Notes under the pieces: generated by a model
Database searches by the model: none
The model's input: the letters and a program-made list of their open reading frames with translations, nothing else
What the model was told of the DNA's origin: nothing
Shown here: one piece after another, positions 37,995-52,728 of the stretch
How the letters are laid out: the number at the start of each line of letters is the position of its first letter
Numbering within the stretch: the stretch's first letter is position 1
Source: Actinomycetota bacterium
Lineage (GTDB): Bacteria > Actinomycetota > Geothermincolia > Geothermincolales > RBG-13-55-18
Reading direction: 5' to 3'
Assembly: GCA_040757835.1 (NCBI GenBank)
Contig: JBFLWJ010000002.1
Span: 127,498 to 191,497, forward strand
Length of the DNA: 64,000 bases
Program-made: the position numbers and the translations under genes

Positions 37995-38477
37995 TTATTC
38001 CAGGTCGAACTCCTCTTTCTCTTCCTCCTGCTCGGGAGGGCCCTGCAGCCTCTCCCTGGCCCGCTTGATCACCTCGAGGAGCTTGTAGCACGTGACCTCC
38101 AGGTTGGCCAGGCGCTCATCGGCGTAATCCTCCGCCTCCAGGCGTATCTCCCTCGATTGCGCCTGGGCGTCCTCAATGATCCTCTCCGCTTCAGCCCGGG
38201 CCGTCTTGATGATCTCCGTCTCCTCGATCAGGCGCGCCCTCTCCTCCATGGCCTCCTCATGGATGCGCTCGGACTCTTTGCGCGCCTCGTCCATGAGTTC
38301 CTGCTTCTCCTTGACCATCCAGCGCGCCTGCTTCAATTCCTCCGGCAACGAGCTGCGGAACTCGTCCAGGAGCTCGAATATCTCCGTCTCGTTGACCATC
38401 ACGGAAGAGGAGAACGGCACGTGTTTGCTGGATACGATGAGGTCCTCTATCCTGTCCAGTTGTTGAAAGACGTCCAT
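37995..38477 (-). CDS. acidic coiled-coil protein (ATP-synthase-b-like / DivIVA-like), unknown function
   Basis: 160 aa, predominantly E/R/K-rich heptad-like sequence. Starts 1 codon after the coaD stop in the same frame. Confidence 0.3.
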   Translation of the reverse strand: MDVFQQLDRIEDLIVSSKHVPFSSSVMVNETEIFELLDEFRSSLPEELKQARWMVKEKQELMDEARKESERIHEEAMEERARLIEETEIIKTARAEAERIIEDAQAQSREIRLEAEDYADERLANLEVTCYKLLEVIKRARERLQGPPEQEEEKEEFDLE

Positions 38478-38993
38478 CTAGACCGCCCCTTTCTTCAACA
38501 TGTCGAATTTCTTGTTGAACATCTCGCCAAGCTCCTTCTCCAGGTTCGCAGGTACCAGCCCGGTTATGGAGCCTCCGTATGCTGCTACCTCACGTACCGC
38601 GCTTGAGCTGATAAACGTGTACTCCGGTGCGGCCATGACGAAAAACGTCTCTATCTCTTCGCCCATGGCCTGATTGATCTGTGACATCTGGAACTCATAT
38701 TCGAAATCACTGATGGCCCTCAAGCCCTTGACGATGACCGTAGCGCCGACCTTGCGGGCGAAATCGACCAAGAGGGTATCGAAGGACGTCACCTCGACGC
38801 CATCCAACCCCGCGGTGGCCTTCTCCAGCAAAGAGACCCTCTCCTCCACGTTGAACAGGGGCTGTTTAAAGGGGTTGACCGCTACGGCCACGATAAAGCG
38901 GTCGAAGTGCCTGTACGATCTTGTGATCACGTCCATGTGGCCGCAGGTGATGGGGTCGAAAGTCCCCGGGCAGATCGCGACTTTGGCGTCTAT
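38478..38993 (-). CDS. coaD: phosphopantetheine adenylyltransferase, with proposed non-ATG (ATA) start
   Basis: Track ORF starts at ATG 38936 ('MDVITRS'). The essential nucleotidyltransferase motif 'ICPGTFDPITCGH' is encoded in-frame just upstream of that ATG. The only plausible initiator is ATA at 38991-38993, preceded by SD GGAGGAGGG (6-nt spacer), giving 'MDAKVAICPGTFDPITCGH…' (171 aa). Confidence 0.7.
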   Translation of the reverse strand: MDAKVAICPGTFDPITCGHMDVITRSYRHFDRFIVAVAVNPFKQPLFNVEERVSLLEKATAGLDGVEVTSFDTLLVDFARKVGATVIVKGLRAISDFEYEFQMSQINQAMGEEIETFFVMAAPEYTFISSSAVREVAAYGGSITGLVPANLEKELGEMFNKKFDMLKKGAV

Positions 38994-39020: not shown

Positions 39021-39578
39021 TTACTCTCTTACATAAACATCCACCGCGGATTCCCCGTACTTCCGCCTCTCCCGGAAGTTCACTCCTTCAGGCGGACCCG
39101 GGGGCGAGCTCCGCAGTGGAGCCTCTATGATCACCACCGCCGACGGGGCAAGGAACCCGCCTTCGGCTAGACTTTTTAGCATCTTCTGCCGATAGTTCAC
39201 ATCAATTCTAAAGGGTGGGTCTATAAAAATCAAATTGTACGGCGCCGGGGGAGGCGAGGCTTTTCGCAGGTAATCGAGAATCTCGGCCCTCACCACCAGA
39301 CCCCTGTCCGCCATTCCAAGCATATCCAGATTTTCCTGAATAATACGGATGGGCGCACCGCCACGGTCCACGAAAACCGCCTCCTGCGCCCCCCGGCTCA
39401 ATGCCTCCAACCCCAGTGAGCCGCTCCCTGCGAACAGGTCGAGCACCCTTGCGCCCGCTGTCCTGTCAGAGAGCATGCTGAACACGGCCTCGCGCACGAA
39501 GTCCCTCATGGGTCGAGTGGCCCTGCCCCTGGGCGCCTTGATATGTCTCCCTTTTGCCTCTCCCGCTATTATCCTCAT
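39021..39578 (-). CDS. rsmD: 16S rRNA (guanine966-N2)-methyltransferase
   Basis: 'VLDLFAGSGSLGLEAL' SAM motif and 'DPPF' catalytic motif. Confidence 0.85.
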   Translation of the reverse strand: MRIIAGEAKGRHIKAPRGRATRPMRDFVREAVFSMLSDRTAGARVLDLFAGSGSLGLEALSRGAQEAVFVDRGGAPIRIIQENLDMLGMADRGLVVRAEILDYLRKASPPPAPYNLIFIDPPFRIDVNYRQKMLKSLAEGGFLAPSAVVIIEAPLRSSPPGPPEGVNFRERRKYGESAVDVYVRE

Positions 39579-39592
39579 GCCACCATTCTAAG

Positions 39593-39692
39593 GTATGGGG
39601 TCAGGCCCTGACATGTGACGTTTTCTGATAGCCGAAATGCTTAAATATCTGCATTTGCGGAAAATGTCACATGTCAGGGGCTGACCCCATAC
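39593..39692. repeat. ~100-bp near-perfect palindrome: 27-bp inverted-repeat arms (26/27 complementary) flanking a 46-bp AT-rich spacer
   Basis: Left arm GTATGGGGTCAGGCCCTGACATGTGAC (39593-39619). Right arm GTCACATGTCAGGGGCTGACCCCATAC (39666-39692). Spacer holds a nested AAATGC/GCATTT inverted repeat. Right arm overlaps the last codons of the sortase-like ORF. Left arm ends ~15 nt upstream of the rsmD start. Confidence 0.8.
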
Positions 39693-40504
39693 AGGGAGGC
39701 GCGCATGACGTAGCGGTAAGACGGGTGGAAGGTGGGCGAGGGCCTGCCGTTCTCGGCGCAGCAGACGAAGGCGGTCAATACCGCGCTGGCAGTGGGGTCC
39801 AGGATCCACATGGCCGTCTCCTCCACCACCTGGCCCTCGCTCCACCGGTAGCGGTATTCCCTGCCGCCGTAGTTGAGGGTTATCTCGTCGCCCTCCCGCA
39901 GGTCGAAGAGTCCGTTGAAGGGGAAGTCCACCTGTCCACTGGCGTGGGCCATGACCACGTAATTGCCCCTGCCGGGACGCCCGGTACCGGGATAATGCCC
40001 GACCCCGAACCCGATCACGCTGGCCACTCCCTGCGGGTCGTTTCCCTCTATTACCTCCCCCTGGAAAGAGAACGCCGGTATCTCCATGGTCACGCCGTCC
40101 CCTCGCGTAGTAAAGGCGACCACCACCTCGCCATCGAAGGCCGTTCCCCGCATGTCCTCGGCTATGCCTGGACCGAGGCGGAAGGTATAGGCGGTCTTGG
40201 GTGCGAGGAGTGTATCTGGCACGACCAGGCATTCAGACTCGCCGCTGACGGAGAAACCCACCGGCGGCTCGAAAGAGACCGCCCGGGACAGGCTGTCCAG
40301 ATCCATGGGACGGTCGAAGGAGAGTGCGATGGCGGTGTCCCTGCCCAAGCCATCCCCCCCACGGGGGGAATAGCGCATGAGCCGGGGCCCATCGGCGACC
40401 CCGTAGGCCATCGCCGGGGACACGGCGGGAAGCACCAGCGTCAGCATGCACGCCATCACCAGCATCGCCGTTACCCGCCTTAGAGCCTCTACTCCGCTCA
40501 TCAC
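39674..40504 (-). CDS. sortase-family transpeptidase (class E-like) with N-terminal membrane anchor and Ig-like domain
   Basis: C-terminal half aligns by pattern to SrtE: 'GxGH..GT..PG.GGN.V.A.H…F..L..L..GD.I……G..Y.YR…LTAFVCC…R' (His, Cys, Arg triad positions). N-terminal hydrophobic segment plus beta-rich Ig-like region. Confidence 0.5.
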   Translation of the reverse strand: MMSGVEALRRVTAMLVMACMLTLVLPAVSPAMAYGVADGPRLMRYSPRGGDGLGRDTAIALSFDRPMDLDSLSRAVSFEPPVGFSVSGESECLVVPDTLLAPKTAYTFRLGPGIAEDMRGTAFDGEVVVAFTTRGDGVTMEIPAFSFQGEVIEGNDPQGVASVIGFGVGHYPGTGRPGRGNYVVMAHASGQVDFPFNGLFDLREGDEITLNYGGREYRYRWSEGQVVEETAMWILDPTASAVLTAFVCCAENGRPSPTFHPSYRYVMRASLYGVSP

Positions 40505-40595: not shown

Positions 40596-42740
40596 TCAGG
40601 CGTTGAAGAGCCATTCGAGGTTTTCCTGGAAGCGGTGGGCCACCTCCAGGCGCAGCAGCTGATGCTCGGGGCTGCTGAGGCGATGGTCCATTTCCACCAG
40701 CGCGAAGGCGTCCTCGCGCGCCCGCTGCAGCAGGCGGAAGTCGCGCGTGAGCCGGGCTACGCGCAGATCCGGCATGCCCGACTGGCGGGTGCCGAACAGG
40801 GAGCCCTCGCCGCGTATCTCCAGGTCGGCCTCGGCCAGCTTGAAACCGTCGGATATATCCGCGATGGCGCGCATGCGTTGCCTGGACTCTTCGCTGTCCC
40901 CATCGAAGACAAAGATGCTGTGAGAAGGGTGCTCCCCCCTTCCCACCCTGCCGCGCAACTGGTGGAGCTGGGAGAGACCGAAGCGGTCGGCGTTCTCCAC
41001 CAGCATGACCGTGGCATTGGCTATGTCTATCCCCACCTCGATGACGGTGGTCGACACGAGTAGCTCGATCTCGCCGTCCCGGAAAGAGGCCATGGCAGCG
41101 TCCTTGTCGGCTTTGGCCATCTGGCCGTGCAGCAGGCCGATGCAGACGCCGGGAAAGACCCTGGCCAGCTCCCTGGCCTCTTTCTCCGCCGCTTTGGCTT
41201 CGACGGCGGGGGACGCGTCCACCAGCGGACAGACCACGAATCCCTGGCGGCCGGCTGCCAGTTCCGCCCCCATGAGTTCGTAGGCGTCCTTCCTGCCGTC
41301 GGGGCCCACCACCATGGTGCGCGTTCCCGCCCTCCCCGCGGGGACCTCGTCCAGCACCGAGACCTCCAGGTCGCCGTAGAGGGTGAGCGACAGGGTACGG
41401 GGGATCGGCGTCGCGGTCATGATGAGTGTGTCCGGACAGGTGCCCTTCTCCTTGAGGAGCATGCGCTGGCGCAACCCGAAACGGTGCTGCTCGTCCACCA
41501 CCACCAGGCCCAGGCTCCTGAACTCAACGTCCCCGGATATGAGGGCATGGGTGCCTACCAGGATGTCGAGGGCGCCGCTGCGTGCCGACTCCAGTATCTC
41601 ACGGCGCCTGGCGGCGGCGGTGTTGCCGGTGAGCAACTCTACCCGTACCTGCAGCCCGTGGCCGAGCATGGAAGTTATGTTCGCGAAATGCTGTTCCGCC
41701 AGTACCTCGGTGGGGGCCATGATCGCCCCCTGGTGGCCGCTCTCGTGCGTCAGCAGCAACGCCAAGAGCGCCACCACCGTCTTTCCCGATCCCACCTCCC
41801 CCTCGAGCAGGCGGTTCATGGGATAAGGCCTGGCCATGTCCCCGCTTATCTCCTCGAAGGCCCTCTTCTGCGCCGCGGTCAAGGTGAACGGCAGGGAGTC
41901 CATCAACGCCTTCACGCCGCGACCGGGAGGGGCGTGGGTTATCCCGGGGGTGCCCGACTTGAGCCGCTGGCGGCGCAGCGCCAATGCCACCTGCATCACC
42001 AGAAGTTCGTCGTAGGCCATGCGCTGGCGGGCGCGATTGAGGCGGCCGGACGATCCCGGGAAATGCATCTCGCGCAGGGCCTGGGCGCGGTGGGGATACC
42101 CGTAACGGCACCTGAGCCCGTACGGGATGTGGTCGGGAAGGTCCCCGTACTGCTCGAGGGCGCGCATGATGAGACGGCGCAGCATGGCCGCGCTCATCTT
42201 CTGGGTGGCCGGGTGGAGGGGGATTATGCGCCCCGTATGTACCGTCTTCATGCCCACCTCCCCGGAGTCCTCCAGGATGTCGTAGGCGGGGTTCACCATC
42301 TGCAGGCGTCCGTAGCGGTACTGTACCCTCCCCGAGAAAGCCACCTCGGTTTCAGGCCGCAGCCGGTCGGAGTGATAGGGCTGATTGAACCACACGCCGT
42401 AGAGATATGCGGAGCCGTCGTAGATGGCCACGTGCAATATGCTGCGGTTACGGGAGATGCGGTTTAGCTCGGCGCTGCGCACCGTACCCACCACCGTCGT
42501 CTCCTCACCGATGCGCACGTCACCGATCCTGGACAGCTTGCGCCGGTCCAGGTAACGGCGGGGAAAGTGGTAGAGCAGGTCTTCCAGGGTGTGGATCTCC
42601 ATGGCGTGCAGGTGCCGCAGGAAGCTGCTGCCGATCCCGCTGACCACGCTCACTGGCCTTCTCAGCGCCTCCCAGTGGGCCTCCAGCTCCCAGGCGCGCC
42701 GCTCCACGGCTCCCGGCATGGCGTCACCCCGCCCCGACAT
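40596..42740 (-). CDS. recG: ATP-dependent DNA helicase RecG
   Basis: Wedge domain, helicase motifs I ('GEVGSGKT'), II ('VVDEQH') to VI, 714 aa. Confidence 0.9.
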   Translation of the reverse strand: MSGRGDAMPGAVERRAWELEAHWEALRRPVSVVSGIGSSFLRHLHAMEIHTLEDLLYHFPRRYLDRRKLSRIGDVRIGEETTVVGTVRSAELNRISRNRSILHVAIYDGSAYLYGVWFNQPYHSDRLRPETEVAFSGRVQYRYGRLQMVNPAYDILEDSGEVGMKTVHTGRIIPLHPATQKMSAAMLRRLIMRALEQYGDLPDHIPYGLRCRYGYPHRAQALREMHFPGSSGRLNRARQRMAYDELLVMQVALALRRQRLKSGTPGITHAPPGRGVKALMDSLPFTLTAAQKRAFEEISGDMARPYPMNRLLEGEVGSGKTVVALLALLLTHESGHQGAIMAPTEVLAEQHFANITSMLGHGLQVRVELLTGNTAAARRREILESARSGALDILVGTHALISGDVEFRSLGLVVVDEQHRFGLRQRMLLKEKGTCPDTLIMTATPIPRTLSLTLYGDLEVSVLDEVPAGRAGTRTMVVGPDGRKDAYELMGAELAAGRQGFVVCPLVDASPAVEAKAAEKEARELARVFPGVCIGLLHGQMAKADKDAAMASFRDGEIELLVSTTVIEVGIDIANATVMLVENADRFGLSQLHQLRGRVGRGEHPSHSIFVFDGDSEESRQRMRAIADISDGFKLAEADLEIRGEGSLFGTRQSGMPDLRVARLTRDFRLLQRAREDAFALVEMDHRLSSPEHQLLRLEVAHRFQENLEWLFNA

Positions 42741-49041: not shown

Positions 49042-49719
49042 TTACCTCCCTCGCAAGCAGCCGTCGACCAGCCGGCGCAATGCCCGGACCGCCCCAGCCA
49101 TGTCCGCGGTCCCGGTAACCGCGGAGATCACCGCGATGCCGTCCGCGCCCGCATCGAAGACCTGCCTCGCATTTGCCTCGCTGACGCCGCCGATGGCCAC
49201 TATGGGCAGCGCGACCGCGCCACGTATCTCCTCCAGTCCCTCCAGTCCCATGGGTAAGACCGCGTCCGGTTTGCTCGGTGTGGCGAACACCGGGCCCACC
49301 CCCAGGTAGTCGGCGCCGCCCGCTTCGGCTCGTTTCGCCTCCTCCACCGTGGTGGCTGAAATGCCTACGATCATATCCTCGCCGACCAGGGAGCGCGCCG
49401 CTTCCAGCTCCAGGTCCTCCTGGCCCAGGTGCACCCCGTCAGCCCCTGACGCCATGGCCACGTCCACGCGGTCGTTTACGAAGAAGATGCAGTCCCCCCG
49501 CTGCCTGGCCATAGCGCAGATGCGGGAAGCCAGTTCGTGCATCTCTCTCCCGCCGAGTTCCTTGGCACGCAACTGGATGGCGTCCGCGCCGCCCTCCAGG
49601 GCCGCCGCGGCCACGTCCAGGTGGCCACCGCCCGCCGACGTATCCGCGTAGGTGATGACGTATAGCCCGAGTCTGTGCCTCAGCATATTTTGCTCCGCAT
49701 CTCCTATCGCAACGTACAC
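49042..49719 (-). CDS. thiE: thiamine-phosphate synthase
   Basis: TIM-barrel ThiE motifs ('LYVIT', 'VQLRAKE', 'GADGVHLGQED', 'IGGV'). Confidence 0.85.
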   Translation of the reverse strand: MYVAIGDAEQNMLRHRLGLYVITYADTSAGGGHLDVAAAALEGGADAIQLRAKELGGREMHELASRICAMARQRGDCIFFVNDRVDVAMASGADGVHLGQEDLELEAARSLVGEDMIVGISATTVEEAKRAEAGGADYLGVGPVFATPSKPDAVLPMGLEGLEEIRGAVALPIVAIGGVSEANARQVFDAGADGIAVISAVTGTADMAGAVRALRRLVDGCLRGR

Positions 49720-49813: not shown

Positions 49814-49945
49814 CGTTAGAAAAGCCGCTGCCTGAACGGGTAAGCGGCTCATCATCACCATCGTGACCCACGTTTCCTCCGCTGGCATTACCCAGATCAG
49901 GTTCAGGAGTATGCTCTCAGCTCCCGCCGGGGAGCACCCCCACAT
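49814..49945 (-). promoter_or_regulatory. TPP (THI-box) riboswitch with terminator-type expression platform, upstream of thiE-thiC-thiL-thiD
   Basis: Minus-strand sequence 'GGGGUGCUCCCCGGCGGGAGCUGAGAGCAUACUCCUGAACCUGAUCUGGGUAAUGCCAGCGGAGGAAAC' matches the THI element core (CUGAGA; GAACCUGAUCUGGGUAAUGCCAGCG). A hairpin AGCCGCU…AGCGGCUUUUCU follows before thiE. Confidence 0.8.
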
Positions 49946-50115
49946 GGCGTTTATACGGTTTTCAATCCATTTCTATAATAGCTCAGGTCGTGGCCGTCAC
50001 CAAGGGCAACGGGCATCTGCCGCTTTGAAGGACCCCCGTCCCTGGTCCATAATAGCATCAGGTGGCGGAGGCCTCCCGGGCGGCCGCCAGCCGCGCTACG
50101 CATATGGGGGTTCAT

Positions 50116-52651: not shown

Positions 52652-52728
52652 TGGCGCCCTTGGGGAGATTCGAACTCCCGCACGTGGCTCCGGAGGCCAC
52701 TGCTCTATCCACTGAGCTACAAGGGCAC
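52652..52728 (-). tRNA. tRNA-Arg (anticodon CCG), CCA encoded
   Basis: Hand-folded: GUGCCCUUGUAGCUCAGUGGAUAGAGCAGUGGCCUCCGGAGCCACGUGCGGGAGUUCGAAUCUCCCCAAGGGCGCCA. Acceptor, D, anticodon (loop CUCCGGA) and T-arm (GUUCGAAUC) all canonical. Confidence 0.85.

Follow-up and report, generated by a model that had tools for sequence, protein, structure and literature searches.

A 100-nt palindrome lies between a sortase-domain gene and rsmD in an Actinomycetota bacterium (GenBank assembly GCA_040757835.1, contig JBFLWJ010000002.1), and the locus raises the question of what this palindrome is and whether the neighboring genes depend on it. We analyzed it in a 64,000-nt stretch of the contig, called the window here; coordinates are those of the window unless another locus is named. 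An earlier sequence-only reading had described the palindrome and offered as explanations a remnant like a miniature inverted-repeat transposable element (MITE) or a solo inverted repeat, a recombination or protein-binding site, or a structured RNA leader controlling rsmD-coaD. Our answer is that the palindrome is probably, though by no means certainly, one copy of a hairpin-forming, non-autonomous mobile repeat family that landed at the end of the sortase gene. The family resembles either MITEs or REPINs/BIMEs (hairpin-forming doublets of repetitive extragenic palindromic sequences, REPs; bacterial interspersed mosaic elements). The repeat family is new and previously undescribed; the kind of element is known.

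The palindrome is real and beyond chance. A repeat finder delimited a 100-nt element with two 33-nt arms, 31 of 33 positions being complementary; the 27-nt arms and 46-nt spacer described earlier are a shorter reading of the same object. Its parts are as follows.

39593..39692, no strand: whole palindromic element, the sole long inverted repeat of the window, folding z-scores −9 to −12
39660..39692, minus strand: sortase-side arm (5' arm on the gene-sense strand), GTATGGGGTCAGCCCCTGACATGTGACATTTTC, coding the last sortase codons Y-G-V-S-P-stop
39593..39625, minus strand: rsmD-side arm (3' arm on the gene-sense strand), carrying a −35-like hexamer ATGTCA at 39614-39609
39626..39659, no strand: AT-rich center, 34 nt between the repeat-finder arms, with a nested 6-bp inverted repeat inside
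39597..39604: terminus GGGGTCAG, exact in six of seven palindromes of the orthologous site and in most copies of the genome CAYPZH01 (see below)
39681..39688, no strand: terminus CTGACCCC, the partner of GGGGTCAG
39674..39676, minus strand: TGA stop of the sortase-domain gene, 17 nt inside one arm

The two termini are the only part kept across the palindromes of the orthologous sortase-rsmD site, and the outer ends of the window element read ATGGGGTCAG...CTGACCCCAT. The details reported by the sequence-only reading were all found: the nested repeat AAATGC/GCATTT (39635-39640 and 39651-39656) within the center, a 13-nt palindrome in each arm (GTCAGGCCCTGAC at 39600-39612 and GTCAGGGGCTGAC at 39673-39685), the overlap of one arm with the 3' end of the sortase open reading frame (ORF), and the absence of a T/U tract. 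A lone GTCAGCCCCTGAC 13-mer at 49438-49450, identical to the inner palindrome of an arm, is seemingly coding and has no partner arm; this match is most likely due to chance. The stretch between the 27-nt arm cores is 38 nt long and has 39% G+C compared to 63.9% for the window. A GCTATCA-GAAAA motif stands beside one arm (minus strand, in the center) and is common to some CAYPZH01 copies. The element is short and non-coding; only the tail of the sortase gene and mechanical ORFs cross it.

No other inverted repeat of at least 20 nt was found in the window (12-nt seed, arms at most 200 nt apart), and the 23-nt arm core had no match in 100 shuffles. Predicted folding gave −76 kcal/mol for the minus-strand (sense) RNA (z = −9.2) and −82 kcal/mol for the plus-strand (antisense) RNA (z = −11.5), which folds better than sense. 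As single-stranded DNA the element gave −36 (z = −12). No shuffle equaled any of the three values.

Evidence for a repeat family comes from another genome. The pattern GGTCAGNNCCTGACATGTGAC was scanned over one genome per species and 21 loci were returned, 15 of them contigs of one uncultured Actinomycetota metagenome-assembled genome (MAG), CAYPZH01. The search for multiple copies that the earlier reading had proposed was thus positive in a related genome, with arms on at least 15 contigs. The sortase-side arm is identical to arms of CAYPZH01 copies at 29 of 29 bases, and blastn found nothing in common between the window and these contigs beyond the unit of about 100 nt. The palindrome is a member of a family dispersed in this genome. 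In CAYPZH01 the arms occur mostly as inverted pairs, 63 to 72 nt apart from start to start. All-against-all comparison of the contigs gave a common unit of 95 to 125 nt and no repeat the size of an insertion sequence (IS). Comparison between loci gave 97.6% identity for the 27-nt arm cores and 58.6% (close to random) for the centers, with a few center subfamilies reaching 74 to 88%. The length of the center between the cores is nevertheless confined to 33 to 38 nt, apart from a single one of 43. Some loci have solo arms (L004, L013) or clusters of three arms (L020, L021).

The location of the element in CAYPZH01 is non-random and gene 3' ends are preferred. For 13 element ends, the stop codon of an ORF with high G+C at third codon positions is no more than 20 nt away or overlaps the end; only one end is as close as 20 nt to a start codon. 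Five copies stand between the stop codons of convergent genes. Several copies were noted at the 3' ends of paralogous, internally repetitive, surface-protein-like genes (L010/L017, L013, L020/L007, L004). In one such pair (L010 7450-8000 and L017 569-1113, element plus flank) overall identity is about 74% and the arms are near-identical; the arms have therefore been conserved, homogenized or re-inserted. Both arms of the L020 copy (2043-2122) carry the same internal deletion variant GGGGTCAGGGACATGTGAC, as does the right arm in L019; the two arms of a copy change together.

The same spacer was read in relatives. A search with the sortase protein gave 61 homologs, the source protein (P0001) among them, and 12 distinct orthologous loci (window included) in which the order recG-sortase-rsmD-coaD is conserved. 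A palindrome is found in the spacer at seven of the 12 loci (window, L022, L024, L037, L038, L041, L042). All seven end in GGGGTCAG...CTGACCCC, L041 being one base off on one side. The inner arms differ between the seven and yet stay self-complementary:

Window: CCCCTGACATGTGAC
L022: CCCCGGACATTGGACAAAA
L037: CCCCGGACATGGGACAT
L024: CCCTTAACATTCGT, with about 1 kb and two small ORFs between the arms
L038: GTCTTTCATCTTGCATACC
L042: CCCTCCAAATTCAAC
L041: decaying, the arms about 80% complementary

Pairs were counted on arm constructs, each center being replaced by a GAAA linker. In these constructs 93% of cells were paired, compared to 79% in shuffles and 28 to 45% with the partners slid, and 16 of 28 pairs change on both sides, which was reached in none of 500 shuffles; the sequences were chosen for being palindromes, and the informative point is that different palindromes stand at one orthologous site. 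Arm mismatches show no G-U bias on the sense strand, though they are too few to decide between selection at the RNA and the DNA level. In L024 (3380-4290, also in L025) something has been inserted into the palindrome loop: the arms are separated by about 1 kb with two opposite-strand ORFs of 49 aa and 111 aa, the latter with a weak DUF5719 match. The same locus has a second partial copy of the arm end and −10 box, GTGACCCCATGGTTTAGACTAGCG.

In the other relatives the element has been lost or has decayed. Five of the 12 orthologs have relics or nothing (L023, L026, L039, L040, L043/L044). Among them is the closest relative, L043/L044, which shares 86 to 89% nucleotide identity with the window over 3.9 kb and has 31 nt where the window has 103. 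Relic or solo arms are found at the orthologous site in L023, L037, L038 and L041, and three-arm clusters in L037 and L042. A relic arm is followed by a complete element in L037, L038 and L041, and the arms of L042 are in tandem.

In a RecG tree, L037, L038, L039 and L042 have 90 to 95% mutual identity, yet their inner arms are unrelated. The GGACAT-GGACA arm type, on the other hand, recurs in three separate clades (L022, L037, L041) and in the tail of P0030, a sortase only 60% identical to that of the window. Unrelated arms in close relatives and one arm type in distant lineages argue for replacement and not for slow drift. The insertion point differs too. It follows the first tail codon in the window, L022 and L024, lies 3 nt past a native-like stop in L041, and is three codons further 3' in P0055, whose tail WGQP is TGGGGTCAGCCC read in another frame. 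The site has therefore been occupied repeatedly and independently. The simplest account of these sequences would be that a stretch of about 20 nt was taken repeatedly by different members of a superfamily, followed by decay or deletion. Excising 'GGGG...CCCCAT' would restore an L040-type reading frame, which fits L022, L024, L037, L038, L039 and L041. L040 itself, where the sortase ends KGVE-stop across the −10 box, was considered as an ancestral empty site; this was weakened by the finding that a Pro-ending 5-residue tail is ancestral to the sortase family, and L040 may be a secondary deletion.

Copies were also found beyond the Actinomycetota. The extended 23-mer GGGGTCAGNCCCTGACATGTGAC is shared by Nitrospirota, Myxococcota, Desulfobacterota and unclassified MAGs, and nine metagenome contigs contain it too, some of them having a G+C content of just 43 to 44%. 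From the size of the genome collection we calculate that about 0.07 matches to it would be expected there by chance. The Nitrospirota-type element is about 110 nt long, with the same 23-nt end and a well-conserved center of its own, AGGCCGCCGCGCTTCGCCGTCTTTCAGGTATCCGGCCTGAGCATGAGG. It is found in different flanks (L003/L030, L015, L028, L032/L034, L033, L036); its conserved center could be a small RNA or mark a distinct subfamily. The out-of-phylum copies are in accessory, defense-type islands, where they adjoin a ParE-like toxin pair, Zeta_toxin, HTH_3 plus PIN, Mrr_cat, an Eco57I methylase and DUF4062.

L003 4686-5245, L029 693-1163, L031 339-2352, L033 11101-11760, L008 2539-3993, L028 1397-2632: loci of the toxin-antitoxin and restriction neighbors

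A different arrangement was seen in Myxococcota (L006/L035). There, two direct arm copies 62 nt apart, not inverted (GGGGTCAGACCCTGACATGTGAC ... GGGGTCAGACCGTGACA, L006 about 531-615), stand directly upstream of a PhaR-like regulator gene.

The mobile repeat family, as we picture it, would consist of non-coding elements of about 90 to 140 nt with inverted arms of about 30 nt, fixed ends (AT)GGGGTCAG...CTGACCCC(AT) and a length-constrained center. Its members would settle at gene 3' ends, often touching or replacing the stop codon. The current sortase stop lies inside the element arm. The copy in the last sortase codons would have given the protein its element-encoded ending G-V-S-P-stop, with the other element end placed 2 nt from the rsmD −10 box. 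Presumably, movement takes place as a folded single-stranded hairpin, by means of an enzyme encoded elsewhere in the genome. Once in place, the hairpin, which is very stable, may block read-through or 3' exonucleases where the sortase transcript ends, and it may separate sortase transcription from the putative leaderless rsmD-coaD promoter.

REPINs and BIMEs are inverted REP doublets mobilized by REP-associated tyrosine transposases (RAYTs). REPINs have a less conserved, length-constrained spacer and show compensatory changes, decayed singlets and tandem clusters (Bertels and Rainey, 2011; PMC3116915). REPIN-RAYT systems are described as vertically inherited. The element shares much with them: two inverted conserved units forming one long hairpin, a variable spacer of constrained length, compensatory stem changes, solo decayed units, occasional tandem clusters, and an extragenic position near gene ends with no target duplication. 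It differs in that its single arms are not hairpins, unlike classical REPs, and have no GTAG-type head, that no RAYT was found (a small part of each genome was covered), that its copies number tens and not hundreds, and that its termini are common to several phyla. Membership of a REPIN-RAYT system is not established: an arm by itself forms no hairpin, and the motif search gave nothing like a RAYT.

Bacterial MITEs include the Correia elements of Neisseria, which duplicate TA, and ERIC/IRU of enterobacteria, and the copies of a MITE usually resemble each other from end to end. The element is like these in size (about 100 to 150 nt), in being non-coding, in terminal inverted repeats that fold the whole element, in lying near genes and beside promoters, in its ability to alter ORF ends, and in being present or absent among relatives. 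The differences are the hypervariable center and the absence of a clear target-site duplication and of a matching parent IS. The suggestion of a MITE-like mobile remnant is broadly borne out by the copies elsewhere and by filled, decayed and empty sites at one locus; membership of the classical MITEs fails on target duplication, and no parent IS or transposase was seen in the loci, plasmids and phages covered. The solo inverted repeat was not borne out: the element is intact, and it is single-copy within the window. Tn3-derived miniature elements (TIMEs) have 38-bp inverted repeats starting GGGG and a 5-bp target duplication. The arms share the initial GGGG, but 5-bp direct repeats beside the copies are absent and no plasmid-borne transposon matched, and a TIME was rejected.

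Several observations weigh against a mobile repeat. The search for target-site duplications, proposed earlier, gave no unambiguous case: no direct repeat of at least 3 nt flanks any copy, and TA or 5-bp duplications (Correia- or Tn3-like) were not seen. Most copies are flanked by (G)AT...AT(C); being a palindrome itself, this is not informative and could belong to the inverted repeat. A six-frame search of the window and L001-L039 for an HUH/RAYT-type motif (H.H..-30 to 130 residues-Y..NP), a crude test, found none. Plasmid and phage collections and viral contigs gave no real match to the element, and no parent IS with the same ends was seen among the CAYPZH01 loci, plasmids and phages. A DDE_Tnp_1 gene 850 nt from the L036 copy was rejected as part of a parent IS because its orientation is wrong for being bounded by the element. 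Copy number is low, with a single copy in the window and about 15 to 20 in CAYPZH01 among the stretches read, which is few for REPINs. The single arm folds at −2.8 to −3.8 kcal/mol (z about −0.6), and 48 to 57 of 200 shuffles fold as well. The internal arm palindrome claimed earlier is present, but a single arm folds no better than shuffles, and the 13-nt palindrome is missing from the L024, L038 and L042 variants. Near-identical arms with nearly unrelated centers are odd for recent copy-and-paste; selection or homogenization of the arms would explain them equally well. Finally, sortase homologs of as little as 50% identity carry a C-terminal 5-residue tail whose last residue is Pro, and the L023 tail GASP is coded by GGGGCCAGCCCC, one base off the element terminus, at a locus with no palindrome. 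Some of the 'arm' may hence belong to the gene itself, the element resembling this stretch or being directed to it. The element may be targeted to a sequence similar to its own end, or else the tail may be a relic of great age.

A broader claim we put forward only tentatively. The copies may belong to an undescribed multi-phylum hairpin superfamily with ends GGGGTCAG...CTGACCCC, homing to stop-proximal sites, rewriting C-termini, and moved or maintained by neither a recognizable RAYT nor a neighboring DDE transposase.

The main rival to a mobile repeat, and one that is compatible with mobility, is that the hairpin is a module selected by the host as a U-tract-less terminator, an insulator or a stabilizer of mRNA 3' ends. 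Selection would retain it at gene ends and keep the arms complementary for the sake of the stem, its spread being secondary. REPs are known to stabilize upstream mRNA in E. coli, and U-tract-less 'I-shaped' hairpin terminators have been proposed for Actinobacteria, although their activity is disputed. The very stable stem on both strands, the position of copies at or just past stop codons (five of them between convergent stops), the pairing of the arms that is retained as their sequence changes, and arms far better conserved than the centers and the flanking paralogous genes (74%, L010 vs. L017) all suit such a module. Like an I-shaped terminator, the element is a long G+C-rich stem directly 3' of a stop codon with no T tract; those terminators are unique to each gene, however, and the element is a repeated family with fixed termini. 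It was also not an intrinsic (Rho-independent) terminator. The G+C-rich stem is there, but no T/U tract follows either arm on either strand, and a terminator scan reported nothing at the site. The closest relative and four other orthologs do without the palindrome. The sense strand shows no G-U bias, and the antisense RNA is the better folder. Selection on the stem alone would leave two things unexplained, namely near-identical 30-nt arms at 15 unrelated loci and the fixed 8-nt termini across phyla. We regard the host module as an unlikely explanation.

Less probable still is a binding or recombination site for a conserved protein, such as a site-specific recombinase or an HUH nuclease acting on the GGGGTCAG ends, with an architecture like integron attC sites. 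Conservation across variants is confined to the termini, with stems that co-vary, new copies adjoin relics of old ones, the out-of-phylum copies lie in toxin-antitoxin and restriction islands, and the same 23-mer in Nitrospirota, Myxococcota, Desulfobacterota and low-GC metagenome contigs far exceeds the chance expectation. The likeness to attC, in architecture only, extends to a comparably sized imperfect palindrome located right at a stop codon or past it, with short conserved ends and a variable complementary stem that is homogeneous within a genome and different between genomes; out-of-phylum copies also lie beside toxin-antitoxin genes. An attC site as such was rejected. The ends have no R-boxes (RYYYAAC/GTTRRRY), there is no integrase or cassette array nearby, and the flanks are conserved housekeeping gene order. 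No candidate protein was identified. Of the recombination or protein-binding site proposed by the sequence-only reading, a role of the conserved termini is possible, and a locus-specific operator for rsmD is contradicted by the differing arms of close relatives and by the copies at gene 3' ends.

All genes here are on the minus strand (recG 40596-42740, sortase gene 39674-40504, rsmD 39021-39578, coaD 38478-38936), and the features around the rsmD promoter are these.

39674..40504, minus strand: gene with Big_5 and Sortase domains (Pfam), the upstream neighbor
39021..39578, minus strand: rsmD (Pfam Cons_hypoth95), the downstream neighbor
39585..39590, minus strand: −10-like box TAGAAT, a host feature and not part of the element, 2 nt past the arm and 6 nt before the rsmD ATG

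The rsmD-side arm stops 14 nt short of the rsmD ATG at 39578, close to the distance given before. It spans positions about −13 to −45 of a promoter-like site, ATGTCA-18-TAGAAT. A TAnAAT box (TAGAAT, TACAAT or TAAAAT) is found 6 to 7 nt before the rsmD ATG in 12 of 12 orthologous loci, palindrome or not; rsmD therefore has its own promoter, and its −10 box is independent of the palindrome. The sortase gene of L040 runs into this box with its final codons, GTA GAA TAG. Leaderless mRNAs are established in actinobacteria, and together with the spacing of 6 to 7 nt this points to a leaderless rsmD-coaD promoter, with mRNA probably starting from the A of the ATG. With the likely transcription start downstream of it, the hairpin cannot serve as a leader of rsmD.

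A cis-regulatory role at rsmD-coaD, be it as an operator over the −35 region or as a structured RNA leader, is accordingly very unlikely, even though the arm covers the −35 region and the element stops just before the gene. The predicted transcript would be without the hairpin, the palindrome is absent or decayed in five of 12 orthologs (the closest included), arm sequences are wholly different between close relatives, and the same element is found at the 3' ends of unrelated genes elsewhere. At gathering thresholds Rfam has no match at the palindrome. In E-value mode only sub-threshold microRNA precursor models matched, a generic long-hairpin effect. The RNA leader suggested by the earlier reading is not supported, and the hairpin is probably not needed for rsmD expression. 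The least credible explanation is a chance or locally made palindrome with no family and no function, such as a sortase 3' end duplicated in inverted orientation. Sortase tail codons do coincide with the 12 outermost nt of one arm, and the similar GASP tail of L023 exists without a palindrome, but the same arms stand at no fewer than 15 unrelated loci of another genome, in L041 and P0055 a complete element terminus stands apart from a native-like tail, and shuffles never reproduced the palindrome.

A few observations on the surroundings were made in passing. The rsmD and coaD genes are separate in the window and in other relatives, and are called as one fused gene of 367 to 370 aa in L037 (3388-4500), L039 (3354-4466) and L042 (3471-4574). 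The 160-aa gene after coaD (37995-38477, minus strand) is Glu/Arg-rich and probably coiled-coil, with a weak ATP-synt_B match; its orthologs are annotated Scy (PF28068) and its position is kept in all relatives. The deposited sortase protein begins one codon after the start of the 276-aa ORF. The only Rfam matches at gathering thresholds elsewhere in the window are a thiamine pyrophosphate (TPP) riboswitch (49857-49951, minus strand; 61.5 bits, above the gathering score) and a tRNA gene (52655-52726, minus strand). A full-text literature search with the arm sequences returned nothing relevant.

Proteobacterial REPs, REPINs and MITEs have been studied extensively; from uncultured Actinomycetota such repeats are barely described. 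The sortase-rsmD spacer provides a natural series of intact, replaced, decayed and lost copies at one locus. The series shows elements that rewrite a protein C-terminus and are wedged at a housekeeping promoter with its −10 box undisturbed. For annotation, the sortase tail and stop overlap a repeat arm, and the palindrome should not be called a riboswitch or leader. The occurrence of the 23-mer across phyla, often near toxin-antitoxin and restriction genes, hints at horizontal spread or at a conserved recognition protein. If the multi-phylum superfamily is true, it would represent a new mode of targeting, for example by recognition of a look-alike of the element's own end such as the sortase tail GGGGCCAGCCCC.

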